Shown: positions 550 to 49,764 of the stretch, in pieces
Numbering within the stretch: the first letter of the stretch is position 1
How the letters are laid out: the number at the start of each line of letters is the position of its first letter
NCBI RefSeq assembly: GCF_963921235.1
Contig: NC_086107.1
Location: forward strand, 95,668,001-95,732,000
From: Mobula hypostoma
Taxonomy: Eukaryota
Length of the DNA stretch: 64,000 bases
Direction of reading: 5' to 3'
Made by a program: the position numbers and the translations under genes
The notes under the pieces: generated by a model
What the model saw: the letters and a program-made list of their open reading frames with translations, nothing else
What the model was told of the DNA's origin: nothing
Databases searched by the model: none

Positions 550-1559
550 GTCTCAAATTTAAAATGCGCCCCTTACATTTAAACATTTGCTTCAAGGTAC
601 ACCAATTCCATTTTACAAGTCTCTCACTGTGGCAGGAGCAATACCTCTCTGTTTGTGGCATGTCGAACTGTTGGAGTGACAGCGGCTTTTGATGGACATG
701 GTCTCTTTGGGGGCTCTGCTAATGCTGACATGGCAGGTGGTGGGGGGGGGCTAGTGCCTTTTGCTGAGGCAGGTAGGGGAGAGGGAAGGGAAGGGTTGGT
801 GCTTTGCTGCTTGTGCATGGGGGAGTGAAGGGGGTTTGGGGTTCTAACGTTTTCCTGTCATCTATTCTTTGGGGTTTTTCTTCTATTTTATGGATGTCTG
901 TGGAGAGCGAGAACTGCAGGTTGTATATTGCACACATTCTCATCATTAAATGTAACTATTGAACAATCACAAGTCAACTTTGTCCACAAATCAGAAAATA
1001 CACAAATATCTCCAGATGAATCTCAGGAGTTGTATACACACTCTGGATAATAAATGCACTTTGAATCTTCGAAATCGTTCCGATAACCATTCCAAAGAAA
1101 GGAAACGAGTTCTGCCATTTGTTGGAATGAACATGCATACGTATATGAAGGGCCGTGCAAAAGTCTTATATACAGTTAGGGTGAGGGAATTCATAGGAAC
1201 GAGGACAACAGGTAAAGGAGGTCAGGGAGGAAGGCATTACCCTCAGGAGGGTGAGGATTTTCGAGTAGTACAAGGAGGTCAATACCACAACATGATAAAA
1301 TCAGAACAGGAACCGAAACCCAACAAGAGACAAAAGAAAAAATTTCTTCTCTCAAAATGTTGGCCCATTTTATTTTGATATACATGTGACAAATAAAGAT
1401 AATTTTTCAGATTGAATCAGATCTTCAATTTGAACAGAGGGAAATACAATCGCATCATCAATAGGCTGAATCACCTTCTGTACTGAAGTTTTCATGAATC
1501 TTAAGGCCAGTGGAAAGGGTGAAAGCAGTAAAATTACAGGGCAAGTTATCAAAATTTAA

Positions 1560-2290
1560 GCTCGATCAGATAGGCATGTGGGCAGATGTTTGGCAAAAGG
1601 TTTCAATTCAGGTTAAGTGTGAAGTGCTGCATTTTAACCAGGGTGGGGGCTGTGGAACAGAGGGGTCAAGCAGTACCATTTTGTGGTTCACTGTAAGTGG
1701 CATCACAGATAGTCAGGATGGTGAAGGTGTTTAGTACACTGGTCATCATCAGCCAGGGCATTGAGTATAGGAATTAGGATGTTATATTGCCACCGTACAA
1801 GATATTGGTGAGACTATACTTTCAGCATTGCGTAAAGTTTTGGTCAGCCTGTCATAGGAACCACGCCATTAACTCAAAAAAATATGGAGAAGAATTACAA
1901 GGACGTTGCCGGGACTCAAGTCTCTGAGAGGATGAGGGAGAATTTGGGCAGGCTAGGACTTTATTCCTTAGAGTGAGGGGTGACTTAAATCACAAGGGGC
2001 ATAGACAGGTTGAATGCCTTTTACCGGGAAAAGTGATCTTAAAAAAAATATTGGGCATAGGTTTAAGGAGAGAGGTGGATGATTTAAACTGGGACCTGAA
2101 AGGCAATTTCTTTACATAGAGGGTGGCTCATATATGGAATAAGCTGCCAGTAGAAATGGTGAGGCAGATGCAGCAATATCTAAAGGTCATTTGGATAAGG
2201 ACACGGATAAGAGGGTTTTTTAGAGGGATACGGGCCAACAGCAGGAAAATGGGACTAGTTTGGTGGGCAGCATTGTCGGCATCGATGAGT
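1560..2290 (+). mobile_element. Degraded CR1-clade LINE 3' fragment
   Basis: KCEVLHF and other RT C-terminal remnants matching the better CR1 copies in this window. Confidence 0.75.
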
Positions 2291-2389: not shown

Positions 2390-2885
2390 ATCAGCCCAGT
2401 AAATCATGGGTGAAGCCCTCCCACTGTTGAGCACATCTACATGAAACGTTGTCGTAGAAAAGCAGCATCCATCATCAAAGATCCTCAACATCCAGGCCAT
2501 GCTCTTTTCTCACTGCTGCCATCAAGTAAAAGGTACAGGTGCCTCAGGACTCGCACCACCAGGTTCAAGACCATTTACTACCCCTCAACCATCAGGCTCT
2601 GAACAAAAGTGGGATAACTATGCTCATTCTATTTCTGGTCTTCCCACAACCGATGGTCTCACTTTAAGGACTCTTTATCTTGTTATTTCATGCTCTTTCA
2701 TTTCATGTTATTTTATAGTCGTTATTTATGCTATTTATTTATATTTACATTTGCACAGTTTGTTATTCATTGATCTTGTTTACAGTAACTGTTCTATAGG
2801 TTTGCTAAGTATACCAGCAGGAAAAAGAATCTTGGAATTGTATGTGCTGACATGTATGCACTCTGATAATAAATTTTATTTTCAA
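2390..2885 (+). mobile_element. Rex1/Babar-type LINE 3' end
   Basis: LPTVEHIY...RRKAASIIKDP..HALFSLLPS remnant, then an AT-rich 3' UTR ending GATAATAAATTT. Confidence 0.75.
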
Positions 2886-3347
2886 CTGATTTTCATTGAT
2901 TTCAGAATAATCTAAGTTGATCACAGATGACATCAGGATCTAGATCAACTGGGCAAAGGGAGCCAAGAAATGGCAGATGGAATTTCACTCGGGAAAGTGC
3001 AAAGTGAAGCTTCTTGAGAAGTTAAACCAGGCCAGGGCTTCCACTGTGACTAGCAATGTTGTAGAACAGAATCCCACACGTGCAAATAGATAGATAATGA
3101 CAGAAATATACCACCTAGACAAAATGGTGAGGAAGACACATGGCACTTGCCCTCATTGGTCAGGAGGTTTGGTCTAAAATAGAGACAGCAGATTACAACC
3201 ACACAAGATTCAGGCGAGCCCGCACTCAGAGTACTATGTTCAGTTCTAGTCACTATACTGCAGGAAGCACGTGATTAAGCTAGAGAGGATACAGAACAGA
3301 TTCACAAGGATTTTGTTTGGCGGGCTTGAGTTACGAGGAGAGACTGG

Positions 3348-8249: not shown

Positions 8250-9895
8250 TTGGATGGTGAGGACAATATGAGTCAGGTTGATGTTCTGGAGCATGTTGAT
8301 ATTAAGAGAGAGGAGGTGTTGGAGTTGTTAAAATACATTAGGACGGGTAAGTCCCTGGGGCCTGATGGAATATTCCCCAGGCTGCTGCACTAGGCGAGGG
8401 AAGAGATTGCTGAGCCTCTGGCTAGGATTTTTACGTCCTCGTTGTCCACGGAAATGGTACCGGAGGATTGGAGGGAGGCGAATGTTGTCCCCTTGTTCAA
8501 ACAAGGTAGTAGGGATAGTCTGGGCAATTATAGACCAGTGAACCTTACGTCTGTGGTGGGAAAGCTGTTGGAAAAGATTCTTACAGATAGGATCTCTGGG
8601 CATTTAGAGAGTCATGGTCTGATCAGGGACCGTCAGCATGGCTTTGTGAAGGGCAGATCGTGTCGAACAAGCCTGATAGAGTTCTTTGAGGAGGTGACCA
8701 GGCATATAGATGAGGGTAGTGCAGTGGATGTGATCTATATGGATTTTAGTAAGGCATTTGACAAGGTTCCACATGGTAGGCTTATTCAGAAAGTCAGAAG
8801 GCATGGGATCCAGGGAAGTTTGGCCAGGTGGATTCAGAATTGGCTTGCCTGCAGAAGGCAGAGGGTCGTGGTGGAGGGAGTACATTCAGCTTAGAGGATT
8901 GTGACTAGTGGTGTCCCACAAGGATCTATTCTGGGACCTCTACTTTTGGTGATTTTTATTAAAAACCTGGATGTGGGGGTAGAGGGGTGGGTTGGCAAGT
9001 TTGCAGACGACACAAAGGTTGGTGGTGTTGTAGATAGTGTAGAGGATTGTCGAAGATTGCAGAGAGACATTGATAGGATGCAGAAGTGGGCTGAGAAGTG
9101 GCAGATGGAGTTCAACCCGGAGAAGTGTGAAGTGGTACACTTTGGAAGGACAAACTCCAAGGCAGAGTACAAAGTAAATGGCAGGGTACTTGGCAGTGTG
9201 GAGGAGCAGAGGGATCTGGGGGTACATGTCTACAGATCCCTGAAAGTTGCCTCACAGGTGGATAGGGTAGTTAAGAAAGCTTATGGAGTGTTAGCTTTCA
9301 TAAGTCGAGGGATAGAGTTTAAGAGTCGCAATGTAACGATGCAGCTCTATAAAACTCTGGTTAGGCCACACTTGGAGTACTGTGTCCAGTTCTGGTCACC
9401 TCACTATAGGAAGGATGTGGAAGCATTGGAAAGGGTACAGAGGAGATTTACCAGGATGCTGCCTGGTTTAGAGAGTATGCATTATGATCAGAGATTAAGG
9501 GAGCTAGGGCTTTACTCTTTGGAGAGAAGGAGGATGAGAGGAGACATGATAGAGGTGTACAAGATAATAAGAGGAAATAGATAGAGTGGATAGCCAGCGC
9601 CTCTTCCCCAGGGCACCACTGCTCAATAGAAGAGGACATGGCTTTAAGGTAAGGGGTGGGAAGTTCAAGGGGTATATTAGAGGAAGGTTTTTTACTCAGA
9701 GAGTGGTTGGTGCGTGGAATGCACTGCCTGAGTCAGTGGTGGAGGCAGATACACTAGTGAAATTTAAGAGACTACTAGACAGGTATATGGAGGAATTTAA
9801 GGTGGGGGGTTATATGGGAGGCTGGGTTTGAGGGTCGGCACAACATTGTGGGCCAAAGGGCCTGTAATGTGCTGTACTATTCTATGTTCTATGTT
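8250..9895 (+). mobile_element. CR1 LINE reverse transcriptase region to 3' tail (pseudogenised)
   Basis: YRPVNLTSVVGKLLE, QHGFVKGRSC, YMDFSKAFDKVPH, GVPQGSILGP, FADD; in-frame stops near 8391 and 8892; (TATGTTC)n tail. Confidence 0.95.
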
Positions 9896-10604
9896 TATTT
9901 ACTGAGTCTACCCACAAGAAAACAAACCTCAGGATTGGATATGGCGACGTATATAAATAAACTTACTTTGAACTTTGGACCATTCCCTATCTGCATGCAG
10001 CAAGAGCTGGAGAACTTTAACAATACAAACAGAAATTCCTGGAAGAACTCACTTCAGGCTGAAGACACCCCACATGACTATTCCTCCTCCCACAGATTCA
10101 GTCTCCTTCCAACATTTTGATTTTGTTTTAGATTTCTAATATTTACCAGTTTGCTTAGATTTTCGTGACAGAGCATTCCAACAGCACGTGCATTTCATGT
10201 CACAGACGTAGGGACACAGATCAAGCCTGACCTAGTCCAAACCCATCTTTTTGCCCATTGACAAATTCCATTTGCCTAAATTAGGAATGTATCCTTCGAT
10301 ATTTTAGAAATAGCTTCTTCCCCTCCGCTATGAGATTTTTGAATTGTTCATCTACTTTCCTCTGCTTTTGTACTAATTATTTATTATAACAGCCATTTAT
10401 GTATTGCATTGTACAGCGGTGGCAAAATGACATTTCAAGATATATGGCACGTCAGTGATAATAGGTTAGCAGGTTAATTGGCCATTGTACATTGTATTGT
10501 GATTAAGCTAGTATTAAACAGGTGGTTGCTGGGTGTTGTACTGCGTCTGTACTGCACTGTATCTCTAAATAAATACATAATAAACTTAACTCTAATGTCC
10601 ATCT

Positions 10605-10802
10605 GGGGTGTATGGGGTGTCCAGGGAGGGGTAGCACCTCTGGTGGGGGGGGGAGGGGGCTACCATGCCCTTTTCAGGGCAGCTCATCCACCTTTGGTCC
10701 CCACCTGGCGCTCAACTCTCACCTGTGGCTCCAAGTAGTTGTAGCACGCGCAGCGGCCACACCCCGGTAAACCGTCTCGGCACACAGGCCAAACCAGGTG
10801 AG
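10605..10802 (+). ncRNA. HDV-like self-cleaving ribozyme (predicted)
   Basis: P1 GGGGTGT 10605-10611 / ACACCCC 10759-10765; P2 CTCACCTG 10718-10725 / CAGGTGAG 10795-10802; P3 GGC 10727-10729 / GCC 10756-10758; P1.1 CC 10731-10732 / GG 10766-10767; J4/2 CCAA 10789-10792. Folded by eye. Confidence 0.7.
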
Positions 10803-11144
10803 GGTAGCCGATGGGTCTTTGACCCTCGGCGAGGTAGGGGATCTGCCTGTCCCAACGTGTGAAGTCTGGCCCTGGTAGATTGAGCGGAGGAGACTGATTA
10901 ATGGTCCAACGGTCAAGAAGGCAGGGCCAGCGGGCGTGGTGGAGTGCTAAGAGCACGGGAAGACACTTAGACGTCCTGGTCATCCATTGCAAGAGGTGGT
11001 GATCTCTTTAAGCTCACCCGGCAGTAGGCAAAGGCAAACCACTGCTGTAACCTGCCACGAACATGATTTCCCAATATGTCAGAGCGGCGTGGAGGGAAAT
11101 TATCCGCCAACTGGAAATTCCAGATGCGACCTAAAGCGAGCGAG
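10605..11144 (+). mobile_element. Short non-autonomous retroposon with an HDV-like ribozyme head and RTE-like 3' end
   Basis: 8-bp TSD TGTCCATC (10596-10603, 11145-11152); RTE/BovB-like 3' motif GGCAAACCACTGCTGTAACCTGCC; no A/B boxes seen. Confidence 0.8.
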
Positions 11145-11419
11145 TGTCCATCGAAGTGCCTTTTAAATGCAGTAATTGTATCTGACTGTATTGTGTAAAA
11201 AGAGAATTGCCCTCAAATTCCTCTCACTTTAAAACTTTGCTCTGACTTCCGACATCTCACTGTCCATGCCTCTCACAACCTTACATTCTTCCAACAAGTC
11301 ACTCTCTGTCACGACCTCCTTCACTCCATGGAAGGCAAACCAGGCCTATCCAACCCAGGCACTGTCCCCGTGAATCTTGGCCGCGCTCTGTCCCACGTTC
11401 TTGCTGGGGTGCGGCTAAC

Positions 11420-17569: not shown

Positions 17570-18740
17570 GTTAGCACATCGAACAGTATAGCACAGGAAC
17601 CGATCCTTTGGCCCACAATGTGGCATTAAACCAACTAAATTAATGCCAATCCAAACTAATTCCTTCTGCCGACATGATGTCCATATCCCTCCATTTTCTG
17701 TACATTCATGTACCCATCCAAAAGCCTCTTAAACCCCTCCATTGTATTTGCCTCCACCACCAACCCTGGCAGTACATTCCCGACACCCACCACCTCTCTG
17801 TGTAAAAAAAACTTACCCTGCACATCTCCTTTGAACCCTCCCTGCTGACCTTAAATGCACACCCTATTAGACACCTGGTCCCCAAGGAAGAAAATAACAA
17901 ACTTTCTACTTATTTATGCCTCTCATAATCTTATAACCCTCTTATCAGATCTCTCCCCAGGTTCGGAGAAACTAGTCCAAGTTTGTCCACATCACCTTAA
18001 AGCGCATTCCCTCCATCCAAGCAGCATTTTGGTAAACCTGTTCTATATTCTCTCCAAAGCCTATAAGTGGGTACAATATTCCAATTGCAGCCTAACTAGA
18101 GTTTTATAAAGCCGCAGTATCATTTTCCGACTCTATTTAAATATCTCAACTCATGAACACAAGTATAACATACGTCATTTTATTACCCTGTGTGGCTGCA
18201 GACTTGGATTCCAAAATCCCTACATAAACCAACACTGTTAAGGATCCTTTGCATTTGATCTCTTCACATTTGGCCGGATTAAATTCCATCTGCAATTGAT
18301 CTATATCCCGTTGTATGCTTTGTTATTTTATTTAGCGAGAACAGGCCCTTCGACAAACCCCGTTTAACCCTAACCTTATGACCAGTTAACCTACCCGGAA
18401 CATCTTTGGACTGTGGGAGAGAACCGAGCGGACCCGCTTTCCACGGGGAGGACGTAAAGAGACTCCTTACAGGACGGTGCCGGAACTGAACTCCGAAACG
18501 CGCCGCGCTAACCACTAACGCCTTCTCCCATCTACAAGATCACCAATCTTTGCACCGTCTGCAAATTCACTAACCCCACGTATGCAGGCTATTTATATAC
18601 GTGCATATTGCAAGCAGCAGAGACTCCAGTTCAGAACACCACCAGTCACAGACTTCCAGCCGGAATAAATCCGATCGCCCACGATCCGCTGTCTTTAATG
18701 GGCAAGCCAATTCTTAACCCAAGCAGCCAAGTCACCGTGT
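17570..18740 (-). mobile_element. CR1 LINE fragment with a nested SINE
   Basis: Reverse complement of CR1 RT C-terminus and 3' UTR; SINE at about 18320-18520. Confidence 0.75.
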
Positions 18741-18769
18741 TGGCTACATAGATACATTTCTGCCCCAAA

Positions 18770-19965
18770 CACAGTTACCCCACATACCCTGAGACAACTT
18801 TACCTACACCTCCGCCGCTGCCCAGCACAATGTTCCTCCCAGATACACTGTTACTCACCCAGAGTTACCGACCCCCACACACACTGTTACCCACCCAGAG
18901 CTACCGACCCCTCCACACACTGTTACCCACCCACCCAGTTACCGACCCCCACACACACTGTTACCCACCCAGAGTTACCGACCCCTCCAGACACTGTTAC
19001 CCACCCAGAGTTACCGACCCCCACAAACACTGTTACCCACCCAGAGTTACCGACTCCTCCACACTGTTACCCATCCACCCAGAGATACCGACCCCCAGAC
19101 ACACAGTTACCCTGTTACCCACCCATCCAGAGTTACCGACCCCCAGACACACAGTTACCCACCCAGAGTTACCGACCCCCACACACACTGTTACCCACCC
19201 AGAGTTACCGACCCCTCCAGTTACCCACCCAGAGTTGCCGACCCCCACACACACTGTTACCCACCCACCCAGAGATACTGACCCCCAGACACAGTTACCC
19301 TGTTACCCACCCACCCAGTTACCGACCCCCAGATACACTGTTACCCACCCAGAGTTACCGACCCCCAGACACACTGTTACCCTGTTACACACCCACCCAG
19401 TTACCGACCCCCAGACAGTTACACTGTTACCCACACACACACAGTTATCCTGTTACACTCACCCACCCAGTTACTGACCCCCACACACACTGTTACCCAC
19501 CCACCCAGAGATACCGACCCCCAGACAGTTACCCTGTTACCCACCGAGTTACCAACCCCCAGACACAGTTACCCTGTTACACACCCACCCAGTTACCGAC
19601 CCCCAGACAGTTACACTGTTACCCAACCACCCAGAGTTACCGACCCCCACACAGTTACCCTGTTACACTCACCCACCCAGTTACCGACCCCCAGACACAC
19701 TGTTACCTACCCAGAGTTACCAACCCCCACACACAGTTACCCTATTACACTCACCCACCCAGAGTTACTGACCCCCAGACACACTGTTACCCACCCAGAG
19801 TTACCGACCCCCACATACACAGTTACCCTGTTACACTCACCCACCCAGAGTTACTGACCCCCAGACACCCTGTTATCCACCCAGAGTTATCGACCCCCAG
19901 ACACACTGTTACCCACCCAGAGTTACCGACCCCCACATACACAGTTACCCTGTTACACTCACCCA
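18770..19965. repeat. Compound minisatellite, about 36-bp core GTTACCCACCCAGAGTTACCGACCCCCAGACACACA with variants
   Basis: Directly visible tandem array; C-rich plus strand, G-rich minus strand. Confidence 0.95.
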
Positions 19966-20030
19966 CCCATCGCCAGCACACGGTAACCAGTCCGTCCGCT
20001 CCTCCGGTCCAGGACCGCCCAACCAATCGC
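19963..20030 (-). other. Probable non-coding first exon of the RAS gene
   Basis: CpG-rich unique sequence ending in a GG|GTGAGT donor (intron begins at 19962 on the minus strand), next to CCAAT and GC boxes. RAS genes have an upstream non-coding exon. The TSS is not determined. Confidence 0.6.
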
Positions 20031-20150
20031 GTCCGCGGACGCCCGGGGCAGCCAGCCAATCACAGCGCCTACTCGGTTGGATTTTGTCCAGTGAGGACAG
20101 GCCGCCAGGGGGGCCTTTGCCGCCTGTCTTACGGCTGCCTGTCAAATATT
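19970..20150. promoter_or_regulatory. CpG-rich TATA-less promoter, possibly bidirectional
   Basis: The clearest non-repeat CpG cluster in the window. GC box CCGCCC at 20015-20020; CCAAT at 20023-20027 and 20056-20060 (AACCAATCG, AGCCAATCA, NF-Y-type), 33 bp apart. Confidence 0.7.
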
Positions 20151-20379
20151 TCTGGAACGAAGGTTTAATTTTAAAAAAAAGAAAACACGTAGTGAATAAT
20201 TTGAACGAATTGTTCATGGGGCTGGTGCTTCGGCATAATTAGCTGACTGGATTGTTCGATGTAAGCCGCAAGAGGAGGTACCTCAGTGTCAGGACCCAGA
20301 TTTTGACAGGGACAATTCCGCTGGGTGGGTGGGGGCCCGTTCTTCATTATTTATGAACATTATTCGGATGTGAGTGTAC

Positions 20380-21579: not shown

Positions 21580-23700
21580 ATCAAAATCAGATTTATTATC
21601 ACTGTCATAATGTCATGAAATTTGTTTTGTGGCAGCAGTTCATATAAATTTACTGCAAGTTAAAATAAGAAATATATGAAAACTTTAAAAGAGCAAAATA
21701 GTGATGTAGTGTTTATGGGTCAATGGAGCATCAGAAATCTGATGTGGGAGGGTAGGAAACTATTCCTAAAACGTTGAGCGTGCGCCTTCAGGCTTGGTAT
21801 CACTCTCTGATGGTGGCAGTGAGAAGTGGGCATATTCTGGGTGGTAAGTGCCCTTATAATGGGAAACACATTTCTGAGGCACAGTTTTTAAAGGTGTCCT
21901 CGATGGTGCGGAGGCTTGTGCCCATGATGGAGCTGGTTGAGTCTACAACCCTCTGTAACGCTTTTTAGTCCTGTGTATTGACACCTCGATACCAGTCGTT
22001 AATGCAAAAGACAACAAATTCTGCAAATACTAAATAAATAAATAAACAACAAATATCGAGAACATGAGATGAAGAGTCCTTGGGTTGTGAGAACATTTCA
22101 GTGCTGGGGTGAGTGAAGTTATCCCCTCTGGTTCAGGAGGCTGATGGTTGAAAGTAATAACCCGGTAGTGTGGGACCTGGGTCTCCTATACCTCTGTCCT
22201 GATGGCAGCAGTGAGAAGAGAGCATTGCCTGGAAGGTGGGGGTCCTTGGTGATGGATACTGCTTTCTTGTGACAGTGTTCCTTGTAGATGTGCTCAACGG
22301 TGGGGAGGGCTTTACCCGTGGTGGACGAGGTCATATCCATTACTTTTTGTAGGCATTTCCATTCAAGGGCATTGGTGTTTCCACACCAGGCCATGGTGCA
22401 ACCAGTCAATATTCCCTCCACCACACACCTATGGAAGTTTGTCAGAGTTTTAGCGGACACGCCAAATCTTTGCAAACTTCTAAGAAAGTAGAGCTGCTGT
22501 CGTGCCTTCTTTGTAATGGCACTTGTGTGTTGGAGCCTCTGAAATAAATATGCCGAGGAATTAAAAGTTGCTTACCCTCTCCACCTCTGATCCCTCAATG
22601 AGGACAGCCTCATGGACCTTGAGTTTCCTCCTCGGGAAGTCAGTGATCAGCTCCTTGGTCTTGCTGACATTGAGTGAGAAGTTGTTGTTGTGGCACCAGT
22701 CTGTCAGATTTTCAATCTCCCTCCTGTATGCTGATTCATCACCAGCTTTGATTCGGCCAATGACAGTGATGCCTTTGGCAGACTTAAATATGGCTTTGGA
22801 GCTGTGCTTAGCCTCACAATCATAAGTGTAAAGTGAGTAGAGCAGGGGGCTAAGCACACAGCCTTGTGGTACACCTGTGTTGATGGAGATTGTGGAAGAG
22901 ATGTTGTTGCCAATCTGAACTGACTGGGATCTGCAAGTGAGGAAATCCAGGATCCAATTGCACAAGGAGGTATTGAGGCCAAGGTCTTGGAGCTTATAGA
23001 TTAGTTTTAAAGAGGGGTTAGTATCGACTGCCAAGCTGTAGTCGATAAAGAGCATCCTGATGTATGCATCTTCGCTGTCCAGATGTTCCAGGGTTGAGCG
23101 AATAGCCAGTGAAATGGCATCTCCTGCTGAGTTGTTGTAAATGTAGGCAAATTGGAGTGGATCCATGTCTCTTCTCAGGCTGGAGTTGAAATATTTCATC
23201 GCCAACCTTTTAAAGCATTTAATCACAGTGGATGTAAGTGCCACTGGACGGAAGTATTTGAGGTACGTTACCATGTTCTTCCTGGGCTCTGGTATAATTG
23301 AGGCCAGCTTAAAATAAATGGGTACCTCAGACTACCGAAGCGGGAGGCTAGAGATCTCAGTGAACACTCCAGCCAGTTGATCAGCACAGGTCTTTAGTGC
23401 TCGGCCAGCTACCCAGTCTGGGCTGGATGCTTTCTGTGGGTTCACCCTGCTGAAGGATGCTCTCAGAGACTGAAATCACAGGGTCATCGGGAGCTGTGGG
23501 AGCTCATGAAGGTGCCTCCATGTTTTGTCGGTCAAGAGGCGTTGAGCTCATCTGGGAGTGAAACCTTGTTGTCACATAAGTTGCTTGGTTTTACTTTGTA
23601 CGAGGTGATGGCATTCAAGCCCTGCCACAGCTGACAAGCATCCTTCAGCGATTCAAGTTTGGTCTGGAATTTCCACTTCGCATGTAAGATGGCACTGCAT
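21580..23700 (-). mobile_element. Rex1/Babar-type LINE (RT and 3' region), degraded
   Basis: ORF 22561-23274: RPVALTSTVIKCF, DPLQFAY, YIRMLFIDYS, GVPQGCVLSPLLYSLYT; ORF 22119-22475 gives the C-terminus. Confidence 0.9.
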
Positions 23701-30599: not shown

Positions 30600-32513
30600 A
30601 GACCATAAGACATAGGAGCAGAATTAGGCCATTCAGCCCATCGAGTGTGCTCCACCATTTCATCATACTCAACTCCATACACCTGCTTTCTCGCCATATC
30701 CTTTGATGCCCTGACTGATCAGGAAACAATCAACTTCCACCTTAAATATACGCATGGACTTGGCCTCCACTGCAGTCTGTAGCAGAGCATACCACATATT
30801 CACTACTCTCTAGTGAAAAACATTCCTCCTTACCTCTGTTTTAAAGGGTCGCCTCTCAATTTTGAGGCTGTGCCCTCTAGTTCTGGATACCCCCACCATA
30901 GGAAACATCCTCTCCATATTCACTCAATCTAGTCCTTTCAACATCTGGTAGGTTTCAATGAGATTCCACCCACCCCCCCATATTCTTCTAAATTCCAGAG
31001 AATATAGGCCCAAAGCTGCCAAACACTCTCATTTGTTAACCCCTTCATTCCTGGAATCATCCTTGTGAATCCGCTCTGGGCTCTCTCCAATGACAACACA
31101 TCCTTTCTGAGATTTGGGGCCCAAAACTCTTAACAATACTCCAAGTGCGGTCTGACAAGTGTCTTATAAAGGCTTAGTGTTATCTCCTTGCTTTTATATT
31201 CTATTCCCCTTGGAAGAAATGCCAAAATTTCATTTGCCTTCTTTACCACAGACTCGACCTGTAAATTAACCTTCTGGAAGTCTTGCACGAAGACTCCTAA
31301 ATCCCTCTGCACCTCTGAAGTTTGAACCTTCTCCCCATTTATTTAATAGTCCGCATTATTCTTCCTTTTACCAAAATGCATTATCATACATTTCCCAACA
31401 CTGCATCTGCCACTTTTTTGCCCATTCTTCCAATTTGTCTAAGTTCTGCTGCAATTGCATTGCTTCCTCAGCACTACCTACCCCTTCACCTATCTTTGTA
31501 TCATCTGCAAACTTTGCCACAAAGCCATCAATTCCATTTTCCAAATCATTGACAAACAATGAGAAAAGTAGCAGTCCCAATACTAACCCCTGAGGAACAC
31601 TGCTAGTCAACCAAAAAAGACCCCTTTTATTCCCACTTGCTGTTTCCTGCTTGTCAGCCATTCTATCCATGCCAGTATCTTTCCTGTAAAGCCATAGTAT
31701 TTTATATTGTTAAGCAGCCTCATGTGTGGCACCTTATTAAATGCCTTCTGAAAATCCAAGTAAATGACATCCACTACCTCTCCTTTGTCTACCCTGCTTG
31801 TTACTTCCTTGAAGAACTCTTAACAGATTTGTTAGGCAAATTTTTCCTTTACAGAAACCATGCTGACTTTGACTTATTTTATCATTAGTCGCCAAGTACC
31901 CTGAAATCTCATCTTTTATAATGGACTCCAACACTTTTCCAACCATTGAGGTTAGGATAACTGGCCTATAATTCCCTTTCTTTTGCCTACCTCCCTTCTT
32001 AAAGAGTGGAGTGACATTTGCAATCTTCCTCTGGGACCATGCCAGAATCAAGTGATTCCTGAAAGACCATGACCAATGCATCCAATAATCTCTTCTGACT
32101 ACACAATGCCCATATCCTTCCATTTTCCTCACATTCAGGTGCCTTTCTAAACATCTCTTTAAAGTTTCTAATGTTTCTGCCTCTACCAACACCACAGGCA
32201 GTGCATTCCAGGCACCCACCACACCCTCTGTGTAAAAATACTTGCCCCTCACAGCTCCTTTCATATTGCACCCCCCCCACCTTAAATGTGTGCCCTTTTG
32301 TATTAGACATCTTTGGAAAAAGACATTGTCTGTCTATTCTATCTATGGCTCTCATAATCTTAAAAAACCTCGATCAGATCTCCTCACAGTCTCTGACACT
32401 CCAGAGAAAACCACCCAAGTCTGTCCAGCCTCTCACGTGTGCTCTAATCCAGGCAACATCCTGGTAAATCTCTTCTGCACTCTCTCCAACGGCTCAACAA
32501 CCTTCCTATAATG
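30600..32513 (-). mobile_element. Nested CR1 LINE fragments
   Basis: KFADDTK, LYKTLVRPHLEYC, NYRPVILTSMVGKVLE; the younger copy continues at 34764-35770 after the hAT insertion. Confidence 0.9.
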
Positions 32514-38210: not shown

Positions 38211-38821
38211 CACTTTTCCTTTTTCTTCTTGACTAAATTTTTCACCTCTCTCAATATCCATGGTTCTCTTACCTTGCTATCCCAGTGCTTTCTCCTTATT
38301 GGAACCAACTTGTCCTGTATTCTGTGCAGTTAGCCTTTAAACCCTCTCCACATGTCAGATGTGGACTTGCCAAACGTTCCCAATTAACTCTCCCTAGTTC
38401 CTGCCTAATAGGCATCCATTAGTCTCGTGAGACCATGAATTTGTGCCTTGGAAGGTTTCCAGGGCGCAGGCCTGAGCAAGGTTGTATGGAAGACTGGCAG
38501 TTGCCCATGCTGCAAGTCTCCTCTCTCCACGCCACCGATGTTGTCCAAGGGAAGGGCACTAGGGCTGATACAGCTTGTCACCAGTGTCATCACAGAGCAA
38601 TATGTGGTTAAGTGCCTTGCTCAAGGACACAACATGCTGCCACAGCTGAGGCTTGAACTAGCGACCTTCAGATCACTAGACTGATGCCTTAACCACTTGG
38701 CCATGCACCAACATATCCTGCCTAATGGTCTTGTAATTTTGCCCTGCTCCATTTTAATTCTCTCCCGCAAAGTTCATACTTATCCTTATACCATCTTAAA
38801 ACTTAACAAGTTGTGGTCATT

Positions 38822-40135
38822 GCAACACTCACAACACGCTGGAGGAACTCAGCAGGTCGGGCAGCATCTGTGGAAAAGATCAGTCGACGTTTTGGGCCGG
38901 AATCCTTCGTCAGGACTGTAGAGGGAAGGGGCAGAGGCTCTATAAAGAAGGTGGGGGGAGGGTGGGAAGGAGAAGGCTGGTAGGTTCCAGGTGAAAAACC
39001 AGTAAGGGGGAAGATAAAGGGGTGGGGGAGGGAAAGCAAGGAGGTGATAGGCAGGAAAGGTGAAGAAGGAATAGGGGAAAACACAATGGGTAGTAGAAGG
39101 AGGCGGAACCAAGAGGGAGGTGGTAGGCAGCTGGGGGAGGGGGCAGAGTGACATAGGGATAGGGGAAGGGAGGGGGAGGGAATTACCGGAAGTTGGAGAA
39201 TTCTATGTTCATACCAAGGGGCTGGAGACTACCTAGACGGTATATGAGGTGTTGCTCCTCCAACCTGAGTTTAGCCTCATCATGGCAGTAGAGGAGGCCA
39301 TGTATGGACATATCTGAATGAGAGTGGGAAGCAGAGTTGAAGTGGGTGGCTACTGGGAGATCCTGTCTGTTGTGGCGGATGGAGTGGAGGTGCTCGACAA
39401 AGCGGTCCCCCAATCTGCGTCGGGTTTCACCGATGTAGAGGAGGGCGCACCGGGAGCACCGGATGCAATAGATGACCCCAACAGACTCACAAGTGAAGTG
39501 TTGCCTCACTTGGAAGGACTGTTTGGGACCCTGAATGGTGGCAAGAGAGGAGGTGTAGGGACAGGTGTAGCACTTGCGCTTACAGGGATAAGTGCCAGGT
39601 GGAAGGTCCGTAGGGAGGGACATGTGGACCAGGGAGTCGCGGAGGGACTGATCCCTGCGGAAGGCGGAGAGGGGTGGAGAGGGAAAAATGTGCTTAGTGG
39701 TGGGGTCCTGTTGAAGGTGGCGGAAGTTGCGAGGATAATGTGTTGGATCCAGAGGCTAGTGGGGTGGTAGGTGAGGACAAGGGGAACTCTGTCCCTGTTG
39801 TGGTGGCGGGAGGATGGGGTGAGAGCCGAAGTGCGGGAAATGGAGGAGATGCGGGTGAGGGCATCATTGATGACAGCAGAAGGGAAACCACGATCCTTAA
39901 AGAAAGAGGACATTTGAGATGTCCTGGAACAGAAAACCTCATCCTCAGAGCAGATGCGGCGGAGACGGAGGAACTGGGAATAGGGAATGGCATTTTTGCA
40001 TGTGGTAAGGTGGGAAGAGGTATAGTTGAGGTTGTTATGAGAGTCAGTGCGCTTGTAGAAGATGTCAATGGACAGTCTGTCTCCAGAGATGGAGACCGAG
40101 AGATTGAGAAAGGGGAGAGAAGTGTCCAAGATAGA
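38822..40135 (-). mobile_element. Penelope-like retroelement 3' part (RT thumb, GIY-YIG endonuclease, terminal repeat)
   Basis: ORF 39183-39623 GVIYCIRCSRCALLYIGETRRRLGDRFVEH; ORF 39506-40201 LPFLNLSVSISGDRL...KNAIPYSQFLRLRRICS; a frameshift separates them. Confidence 0.92.
38881..38918 (-). ncRNA. Minimal type I hammerhead ribozyme of the Penelope element, G12 mutated
   Basis: Minus strand CAGUC-CUGACGA-A-GGAUUCCGGCCC-AAAA-CGUC-GACUG; stem I CAGUC/GACUG; palindromic ACGU stem III. Confidence 0.75.
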
Positions 40136-48700: not shown

Positions 48701-49061
48701 TAAATCCTCACCAGCTCCTTCTCATTCTGGCACATAGAGTAATGCTTTGAGATTCAGAACTTAGAACATGGAAGATTATAACACTGGTTAGGCCATTCGG
48801 CCCATGACGTTGTGTCCTCCTCCTGTGATTGATCCATATTCCTCCAATCTCTTCATATTCATGTGTCCAACACTCTCTGATACATTTGTTATTTACTTAA
48901 CCTCTCTGTTCAGATGAATATTCTGCATAAATTGCCTCGGAATATGAATTTAGCACAATATAATTTACAAATTAGCATTTAAATTCATTCTGTTTTTCTG
49001 TCTGCTCAGAATAAGTGAATCCACAAACTAAGTATTTAACCAAGGTAATATTAGGTTTACA

Positions 49062-49235
49062 GGGGTGTAGGGTGCTCTGGATAGAGGCAGTATCTTGGAT
49101 GTCTGGTAGCTGCACTCTACTGTCATGGGGTGGACGGGCATCTCTGACCCTCATCCATCTCCTAAATCGCTCACGTCTGCCACCTAGTGGCACACCCTGG
49201 TACACCACTTCAGCTGGCAGGTGAAACAATGTGAG
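49062..49235 (+). ncRNA. HDV-like ribozyme (predicted, probably inactivated)
   Basis: P1 GGGGTGT 49062-49068 / ACACCCT 49192-49198 (G.U at the cleavage site); P3 GCC 49179-49181 / GGC 49189-49191; 7-nt L3 ACCTAGT; GG 49199-49200; P2 CTCACG 49170-49175 / TGTGAG 49230-49235; J4/2 reads TGAA rather than CGAA. Confidence 0.65.
49177..49192 (-). promoter_or_regulatory. Candidate CTCF site
   Basis: TGCCACTAGGTGGCAG matches the CTCF core CCASYAGRKGGCRS; binding is not shown. Confidence 0.5.
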
Positions 49236-49764
49236 GGGGTGTTGTTAACATGCACCACTGGGCAAGGGGCCTTGTCAACGAAGTCAACGGCAGGACGGAT
49301 GAGTTCCCTGAAGAACGACAATTGCTATGTGTTCGAGACCAGGGCGAGCCATCGAGTTGGAGGACATCGGCTGTGGTCTGGTCTGGAGAGGGATAGGCGC
49401 CGCCAGGCCTCACTAGCCCAAGGCACGCGAAAGTACCCCTACGACCCCTAGGCAGGTTGTGGGATTCGAATCGAACCAATGTTTACAGATTATTCTAAAG
49501 GAAATGATTGGCTCACTTTAAATCTAGTGGCTCAACTTTCCTTGGAAAGAGGTCGCAAGAGTAAAAGTTAGTTTCTAGGGACATCTGAGGAAGAGAGTGG
49601 GTGATCCTGAGCTGGAGACATGGGTAGACTAGTGGTGGGATTAGATTTGGGGATGATCAAAAACTACAGATAATTTAGGAACTGGCTGACACTACAGAGG
49701 ATGAAGAGATAAATATCTGCCTGGCTTAATGGAAACTACTCCTGTTCTGTGTGGAGGGATAGAG

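Follow-up and report, generated by a model that had tools for sequence, protein, structure and literature searches.

Trimming of 5′ ends by ribozymes of the hepatitis delta virus type (HDV-like) is already established for the mobile elements R2, L1Tc, RTE and Baggins, and is not new as a principle. According to excerpts of PMC6765202, R2 (where the ribozyme has about 184 nt), L1Tc, Baggins and RTE bear such ribozymes at the 5′ end, by which promoter-less elements are released from co-transcripts. The same excerpts report that R2 has parasites lacking an open reading frame (ORF), the SIDEs, and that structure-based searches detect "hundreds of intergenic" HDV-like copies, the sequence of which is conserved downstream but differs upstream. 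NARTc and L1Tc, as an excerpted source has it, have a ribozyme in common, and an excerpt of PMC5035012 gives CCUCCUCGUGG as a conserved P3-L3-P3 motif of R2. Here we describe a case from Mobula hypostoma. Our subject is a 419-bp stretch at positions 49062-49480 (plus strand) of a 64,000-nucleotide segment of this genome (assembly GCF_963921235.1, contig NC_086107.1, positions 95,668,001 to 95,732,000 of the forward strand), which we refer to as the window. In our assessment this stretch is, with a probability of roughly 80%, a dead, about 12-20% diverged copy of a promoter-less, non-coding non-LTR retroposon (one that lacks long terminal repeats) of about 415 bp, the first ~175 nt of which encode a self-cleaving ribozyme with the HDV-like nested double pseudoknot. 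Among the papers listed by our full-text literature searches, none was seen to describe dispersed families of this kind, resembling short interspersed elements (SINEs), in a vertebrate-type genome.

The 419-bp element has all the outward marks of a retroposon. It starts with GGGGTGT and is flanked by the heptamer GTTTACA, a target-site duplication (TSD) without strand, at 49055-49061 on the left and 49481-49487 on the right; the original prediction had placed all of these correctly. The longest stop-to-stop ORFs within the element do not exceed 90 aa, and the four longest of them (69-90 aa) matched no Pfam family. DNA searches of the organism's own genome (3.48 Gb in 200 contigs, with the best 40 first-look candidates scored in each search) place the element in a repeat family, hereafter family 1. 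The family-1 search produced 323 first-look candidates; the best 40 all had E ≤ 7e-82 at 78-83% identity, and 26 of these 40 begin at query base 1-2. When 31 copies were aligned together with their flanks using MAFFT, similarity began sharply at GGGGTGT and stopped after a short-repeat tail. An exact TSD of at least 7 nt abutting the 5′ end was present in 6 of the 31 copies and in 2 of 930 mismatched pairs that served as controls; if up to two mismatches are allowed, the counts become 13/31 and 60/930. Such decay of the duplications is expected, since the copies are old.

A second ribozyme-headed element of the window, at 10605-11144 (plus strand; the end is approximate), belongs to family 2. 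Its ribozyme core lies at 10718-10802 and its TSD, (T)GTCCATC, at 10596-10603 and 11145-11152. The corresponding search yielded 4233 candidates, the best 40 being 88-92% identical to the query and 35 of these 40 beginning at query base 1-2. GGGGTGT directly follows the TSD in most copies. Exact TSDs were found in 15 of 30 family-2 copies (3 of 870 mismatched-pair controls), and TSDs with up to two mismatches in 24 of 30 (55 of 870 controls). Family 2 is younger and larger than family 1. The reproducibility of the duplications across copies had been proposed as a check on the retroposon reading, and in both families they do recur, far above the mismatched-pair controls. Family 3 was discovered through an additional ribozyme core (L002:26-119), which appeared when a covariance model, R1, was run on 58 loci; the same scan returned 59 expected copies and one weak match. 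Copies of family 3 lie at L002:1-220 (minus strand) and at L138-L147. They are about 564 nt long, start with GGGGTGT right after the TSD and end in an (AAC)n tail behind an 11-bp hairpin. Among 2109 candidates, the best 40 were 95-96% identical to the query, and all 40 were full length at the 5′ end, reaching query bases 1-3. Full-length copies of families 1-3 thus begin at G1, adjoining the TSD. Overall, the families display the features of retroposons mobilised by long interspersed elements (LINEs), namely TSDs, 5′ truncations, no coding capacity and a 3′ tail.

Two local arrangements of family-1 copies were also seen. At one locus, L023, two copies in opposite orientation (1501-1905, plus strand, and 2655-3022, minus strand) are less than 1.5 kb apart. 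On contig C64 (G000:C64:9032561-9032732 and G000:C64:9054137-9054308), two heads 21.6 kb apart have identical scores and identical downstream matches; this pair is probably a segmental duplication.

HDV-like ribozymes have a P1 helix of about 7 bp, which runs from the cleavage-site G1 and is closed by a G-U or G-C pair. A 3-bp P3 carries a 7-8-nt L3 and is followed directly by the P1 3′ strand, and there is a 2-bp P1.1. The P2 3′ strand comes after J4/2, which holds the catalytic C, and closes the double pseudoknot. Judged by its sequence, the family-1 head (the first 174 nt in the window copy) fits this order and spacing. The family majority reads P1 GGGGTGT, a J1/2 of about 100 nt, P2 CTCACGTC, a single U, P3 GCC, L3 TCCAAGT, P3′ GGC, P1′ ACACCCC, the GG of P1.1, TACA, P4 CCGCT-TCAGCT-GGCGG, J4/2 GCTAAAC and P2′ GACGTGAG.

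In the window copy, the same parts can be followed along the plus strand, mostly by means of the family alignment. The P1 5′ strand GGGGTGT (49062-49068), with the predicted cut 5′ of G49062, pairs with ACACCCT (49192-49198), the closing pair being G1-U. The ~100-nt J1/2 insert between them (49069-49169) is predicted by RNAalifold to form a long hairpin domain. P2 consists of CTCACGTC (49170-49177) and AATGTGAG (49228-49235), the latter in place of the family version. The P3 strands GCC (49179-49181) and GGC (49189-49191) enclose an L3 reading ACCTAGT (49182-49188), within which the CC of P1.1 (49183-49184) faces the GG at 49199-49200. The P4 hairpin, CCACT-TCAGCT-GGCAG (49205-49220), was assigned from both the alignment and the covariance model and has two mismatched pairs. 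J4/2 reads GTGAAAC (49221-49227), and its catalytic-C column is 49222. The head is followed by the family-1 body (49236-49463), which is unrelated to that of any other family, and by a 3′ tail (49464-49480) that consists of short CGAAC-like repeats and lacks poly(A).

The layout extends to all three families. P1 is GGGGTGT/ACACCC(C/T) in each of them, and 91.4% of its cells are paired across 58 distinct heads. P2 has 8 bp and 91.6% of cells paired. The two P1.1 pairs, CC/GG in all three families, are formed in 93.0% and 79.3% of cells, L3 is either TCCAAGT or TCCCCGT, its CC facing the GG after P1, and J4/2 is either GCTAAAC or GCCAAAC. Invariant across the three families are P1, P1.1 (CC/GG), the frame of L3 (U-CC-NN-G-U) and the J4/2 sequence G-C-Y-A-A-A-C. 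The closest described parallel is R2. The R2 motif CCUCCUCGUGG, as given in the PMC5035012 excerpt, is close to GCCUCCAAGUGGC of the families described here, and the R2 ribozyme of about 184 nt (PMC6765202, in excerpt) is comparable in length to the 174-198 nt found here. In both, this length is due to a large insert that separates P1 from P2. R2 and its SIDEs are also similar, so far as the excerpted sources describe them, in that a 5′-terminal HDV-like ribozyme sets the 5′ end of the element from a co-transcript (here as a prediction) and in that ORF-less derivatives exist. They differ in being site-specific in 28S rDNA, whereas the families described here are dispersed over unrelated sites and have variable TSDs, and in that no parent LINE was found for the latter.

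Substitutions between the families provide natural covariation. In P2, family 1 has G-C at pair 6 where families 2 and 3 have C-G, and pair 8 likewise alternates between C-G and G-C. The middle pair of P3 is C-G or G-C depending on the family. P4 reads CCGCU/GGCGG in family 1, CCGUCU/AGACGG in family 2 and CGGCUU/AAGCCG in family 3; it has four compensatory double changes (pair 4, C-G vs U-A, and three more in family 3), and family 3 loses no canonical pair. Together with two such changes in P2 and one in P3, pairing survives seven compensatory double changes across the three families. In an alignment of 59 heads from the three families (A3), 91.0% of cells are paired, compared with 32-53% when the 3′ partner is slid by 1-3 columns; the covariation is 0.169 (at most 0.077 when slid), a value reached by none of 500 shuffles. 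For 48 heads of two families (A1), the respective figures are 87.7% vs 36-56% and 0.187 vs at most 0.105, again with 0/500 shuffles reaching the observed value.

Compensatory change had been claimed already from a comparison of the two window copies. For P2, this claim is borne out: relative to the family-2 copy, both strands have changed with pairing kept, and the changes are genuinely compensatory. The helix sequences earlier proposed for P4, CCA/TGG and CCG/CGG, are better replaced by CCGCT/GGCGG and CCGTCT/AGACGG, as the families indicate. The proposed swap of P3 from GCC/GGC to GGC/GCC is present and compensatory, but presupposes that a 19-nt insert belongs inside L3, since GGC/GCU would be equally well paired. 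Family 1 itself has the canonical arrangement, P3-L3-P3′ being GCC-TCCAAGT-GGC with a 3-bp P3 and a 7-nt L3. Between L3 and P1′, families 2 and 3 have an additional 19-21 nucleotides, with a conserved GCTG/CAGC stem and differing loops. This insert can be accommodated either as a hairpin within L3, with P3′ being GCC, or between P3 and P1, with P3′ being GCU. In family 2, both placements pair equally well (27/27, or 26-27 of 27).

Could all this be an ordinary decayed repeat, in which the eye has picked out a chance HDV-like pairing pattern? Taken alone, the window copy might give that impression, having neither an Rfam match nor a special folding energy. Such a reading is nevertheless very improbable given the seven compensatory changes and the behavior of R1. 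This model, of 73 positions and 15 pairs, derives from 46 copies, the two in the window having been excluded. On both strands of the 64-kb window, it matched just two places, 10714-10805 (82.6 bits, E 7e-19) and 49166-49238 (73.0 bits, E 2e-16), the second being the copy discussed here. In addition, RNAalifold, supplied with no structure, recovers five of the P2 pairs. In J1/2, it predicts a long helix between A1 columns 18-52 and 94-118 (the 49078-49160 region of the window), in which several pairs differ from family to family in both partners (A-U vs G-C, for instance). According to this model, the J1/2 hairpin would bring P1 beside P2.

The window copy of this ribozyme-headed element is almost certainly inactive, having lost the catalytic C and acquired several other core lesions. 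Its head differs from the family-1 majority at 22 of 178 positions. In the core, these include C>T at 49222 and T>A at 49182, the first base of L3, a column where 28 of the 31 family-1 copies have T; further lesions are the two broken P4 pairs and the mismatched last pair of P2 (C49177/A49228). The original prediction had judged the copy "probably dead" from TGAA in J4/2, and both the TGAA (49222-49225) and the verdict stand, now with the L3, P4 and P2 lesions added. It had also called for a consensus check of the 49222 column. Of the 31 family-1 rows, 26 contain C, 4 T and 1 A, so the family has the C that the window copy has lost. C also occupies the column in 19 of the 21 family-1 heads that are full length, in all 27 heads of family 2 and in all 11 of family 3. 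The proposed route of the loss, CpG decay, fares less well. The ancestral J4/2 is GCTAAAC, the catalytic C being followed by T rather than G: the next column has T in 29 of 31 family-1 rows and G in the window copy alone. With T ancestral in that column, CpG decay fails as an explanation, unless T49223>G came first. As for TGAA, it resembles the J4/2 C-G-A-A of the CPEB3 ribozyme. The latter has an HDV-like fold and comes from a vertebrate genome, but it is a single-copy intronic ribozyme outside any mobile element. The CPEB3 model of Rfam had no match in the window copy, in a family-2 copy or in two family-1 copies.

Comparison of the families points to modularity. Between the majority heads of families 1 and 2, similarity reaches z 14.4 (core 9.8, J1/2 3.4), whereas for the bodies it is z 1.1. 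Given the latter value, the 3′ halves and tails of the two families are unrelated, and the earlier claim of a second, diverged family with a different 3′ half is well supported. BLAST found no cross-family match between families 1 and 2. Family 3 has the head and mid-body in common with family 2 and a different 3′ module. The tails also differ: CGAAC-like in family 1, (CGA)n or GCGAG in about equal numbers in family 2, and (AAC)n in family 3. These sequence comparisons suggest that the ribozyme head has been reused as a module on different bodies.

We searched for a LINE partner next to 60 tail matches (150 or 120 nt upstream) and 37 head matches (150 nt downstream), using queries of at least 60 nt and scoring only the best 40 of hundreds to thousands of candidates. 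Upstream of the tails, the SINE body or a related copy was present in 20/20 family-1 matches, in 15/20 family-2 matches (the remaining 5 being random, mutually unrelated truncations) and in 18/20 family-3 matches (with 2 truncations). Downstream of the heads, it followed in 20/20 family-2 and 16/17 family-1 cases, one of the latter having no match. Within this sample, shared non-SINE sequence occurred upstream of 0/60 tail matches and downstream of 0/37 head matches. The 5′-truncated copies, with their mutually unrelated upstream DNA, together with the short-repeat tails would be consistent with a "stringent" LINE acting through target-primed reverse transcription. At locus L048, 200 bp ahead of a full family-2 copy, positions 1175-1296 hold a fragment with 80% identity to family-2 positions 406-525. 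This fragment may represent an older relative of the tail of family 2; the ORF listing for the DNA upstream of it contains no obvious LINE ORF.

The results of the partner search also bear on the origin of the families. Instead of being independent SINE-like elements into which a ribozyme module was taken up, they may be internally deleted derivatives of one or more LINEs with the same ribozyme in the 5′ untranslated region. This origin, compatible with the ribozyme-headed retroposon reading, has precedents in SIDEs and NARTc, as far as the excerpted sources describe these, and the presence of the same head on three 3′ modules is what deletion from, or recombination with, different LINEs would be expected to produce. 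On the other hand, 36 of the 37 head matches run into the SINE body and one has no match, while none of the 60 tail matches is preceded by shared non-SINE sequence, although a rarer LINE could escape scoring of the best 40. We regard such an origin as somewhat unlikely.

Whatever their origin, the families can be accommodated in a simple life cycle. A master copy would be transcribed by read-through from a neighboring host promoter, and the ribozyme would cut immediately 5′ of G1, setting the RNA's 5′ end. The 3′ stem-loop and short-repeat tail might then be used by the reverse transcriptase (RT) of some LINE for target-primed reverse transcription. In such a cycle, the start of full-length copies exactly at G1 and their 7-14-bp TSDs would follow from the ribozyme cut and from target-primed reverse transcription. 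Self-cleavage, co-transcription and LINE dependence are what we infer from the copies themselves.

A number of observations weigh against this proposal, and against an HDV-like catalytic role of the head in particular. When two family-1 copies were compared with 4227 Rfam families, their best or only ribozyme match was the HDV-like drz-agam-1 (RF01787), but at 16.3 bits (E 0.58) for one and 15.0 bits (E 1.1) for the other, with the gathering score at 37. No Rfam family reached its gathering score in any ribozyme-headed element searched. Permissive Rfam searches returned no match for the window copy and no HDV-like match for one family-2 copy, only weak ones to TCV_Pr and mir-621, and a genome-wide search with RF01787, in which 56 of 309,989 candidates were scored, had no match. 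We know of no tested precedent for the 19-21-nt L3/P3 insert in active HDV-like ribozymes, and it is mainly for this reason that we speak of catalysis in families 2 and 3 only conditionally. The covariation comes from just three independent lineages, the variation within families being post-insertion decay; the structure was derived from the same sequences in which the pairs were counted; and the number of "further pair types" in A3 is unremarkable, as 47 of 500 shuffles match it. The nested minimum free energy (MFE) of the window head, -60.6 kcal/mol, is no better than that of shuffles (-63.6 +/- 4.2 kcal/mol, z 0.70). This is expected of an RNA that is both decayed and pseudoknotted, and we do not count it as support. 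Finally, no autonomous LINE sharing the head or the tail was found, with the limit that one having just the last 30-50 nt in common would escape.

These points give some room to the view that the head is a structured RNA module without catalysis, serving as an RT-binding platform, an internal promoter or a stability element, its likeness to HDV being partial or vestigial. The low Rfam scores, the MFE and the broken L3/P3 spacing of families 2 and 3 would all agree with this. Moreover, the R2 protein, according to an excerpt of PMC6765202, binds a pseudoknot in its ribozyme region, so that roles other than cleavage are possible. Yet we consider a non-catalytic head quite unlikely. The bases kept across otherwise unalignable families are those of the catalytic core, namely G1, U-CC...G-U of L3, the GG of P1.1 and G-C-N-A-A of J4/2, while helix sequences vary freely and stay paired. 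In addition, full-length copies begin exactly at G1, where the ribozyme is predicted to cut. The drz-agam-1 alignment, despite its low score, places P2, P3, L3, P4, J4/2 C-U-A-A and P2′ exactly as assigned here; the two matches are not independent, because both copies come from one family. In drz-agam-1, P1 is adjacent to this core, whereas in the present families it lies about 100 nt upstream. A classical RNA polymerase III SINE, the head of which would come from a tRNA, 5S or 7SL gene with its internal promoter, was considered as well and rejected: the Rfam searches revealed no match to any of these RNAs inside the elements.

The proposed HDV-like retroposons can also be set beside other ribozyme-bearing elements. 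RTE and Baggins are likewise promoter-less non-LTR elements with 5′ ends processed by HDV-like ribozymes (PMC6765202, in excerpt). However, these and drz-agam-1 represent autonomous LINEs or insect intergenic ribozymes, whereas here we deal with non-coding elements of 420-565 bp. In the L1Tc/NARTc pair of Trypanosoma cruzi, the 77-nt ribozyme doubles as the Pr77 promoter, and the host is a protist with polycistronic transcription. Hammerhead SINE-like elements and animal retrozymes are similarly non-autonomous and promoter-less and combine read-through transcription with a self-cleaving ribozyme (excerpts of PMC6765202 and PMC7761336), but use another ribozyme class and form tandem or circular RNAs instead of single dispersed copies with one ribozyme. 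According to an excerpt of PMC7761336, HDV-like circular RNAs exist in animals, and the ribozyme type by itself would permit the element to be an endogenised fragment of such a deltavirus-like RNA. We find this the least credible of the readings considered. TSDs, short-repeat 3′ tails and 5′ truncations indicate LINE-type retroposition; a single ribozyme of one polarity was found in searches of both strands; none of the four longest ORFs matches a Pfam family; and the copies number in the thousands.

Several other features of the window may be mentioned. The original prediction held the 419-bp element to be sense to any transcript running rightward from a "20-kb promoter", a setting in which an active ribozyme might be counter-selected. 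No support for such a promoter emerged. The region seemingly meant (18838-19950) turns out to be a C-rich minisatellite of about 30 units of 36 bp, which creates a spurious open frame of 489 aa (18699-20168). A LINE RT fragment at 8394-9584 (plus strand), with RVT_1 matches in two adjacent frames (E 1e-16 and 3e-11), ends about 1 kb upstream of the family-2 copy. Two more RT fragments lie on the minus strand at 22119-23331, with an ALKBH8_N-like match just downstream of the RT domain, and at 31368-32333. BLAST revealed no similarity between the LINE fragments of the window and families 1 and 2. For one RT fragment of the window, the nearest neighbors are chordate clusters, which hints weakly at a chordate origin. 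An ORF resembling GIY-YIG endonucleases (39183-39755, minus strand, E 8e-5) is possibly the remnant of a Penelope-like element. It adjoins a tRNA-like sequence at 38643-38705 (minus strand), the sole match of the whole-window Rfam search at gathering score (29.8 bits, just above the cutoff), which is possibly the head of a tRNA-derived SINE.

What the case adds to the established principle of 5′ trimming are families of non-coding elements, abundant and dispersed through a large animal genome, that have a ribozyme head in common. It also supplies natural covariation data, a long structured J1/2 insert and, in the L3/P3 hairpin, a candidate new insertion point. In family 3, P4 differs from that of the other families yet pairs throughout, and 11/11 copies retain an intact catalytic core. 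As a tentative and rather less than even proposition, the genome may hold a whole class of promoter-less SINE-like retroposons, with at least three families of hundreds to thousands of copies each, in which one HDV-like 5′ "cap" has been recombined onto different 3′ modules; the youngest family might still be active, and the ribozyme would tolerate a hairpin in L3/P3. In annotation, the label ribozyme-headed retroposon should be preferred for the repeats described here to that of unclassified SINE. If the young family does cleave, it would offer natural ribozyme variants for structure-function work and a clear instance of different non-autonomous elements reusing one ribozyme as a module.

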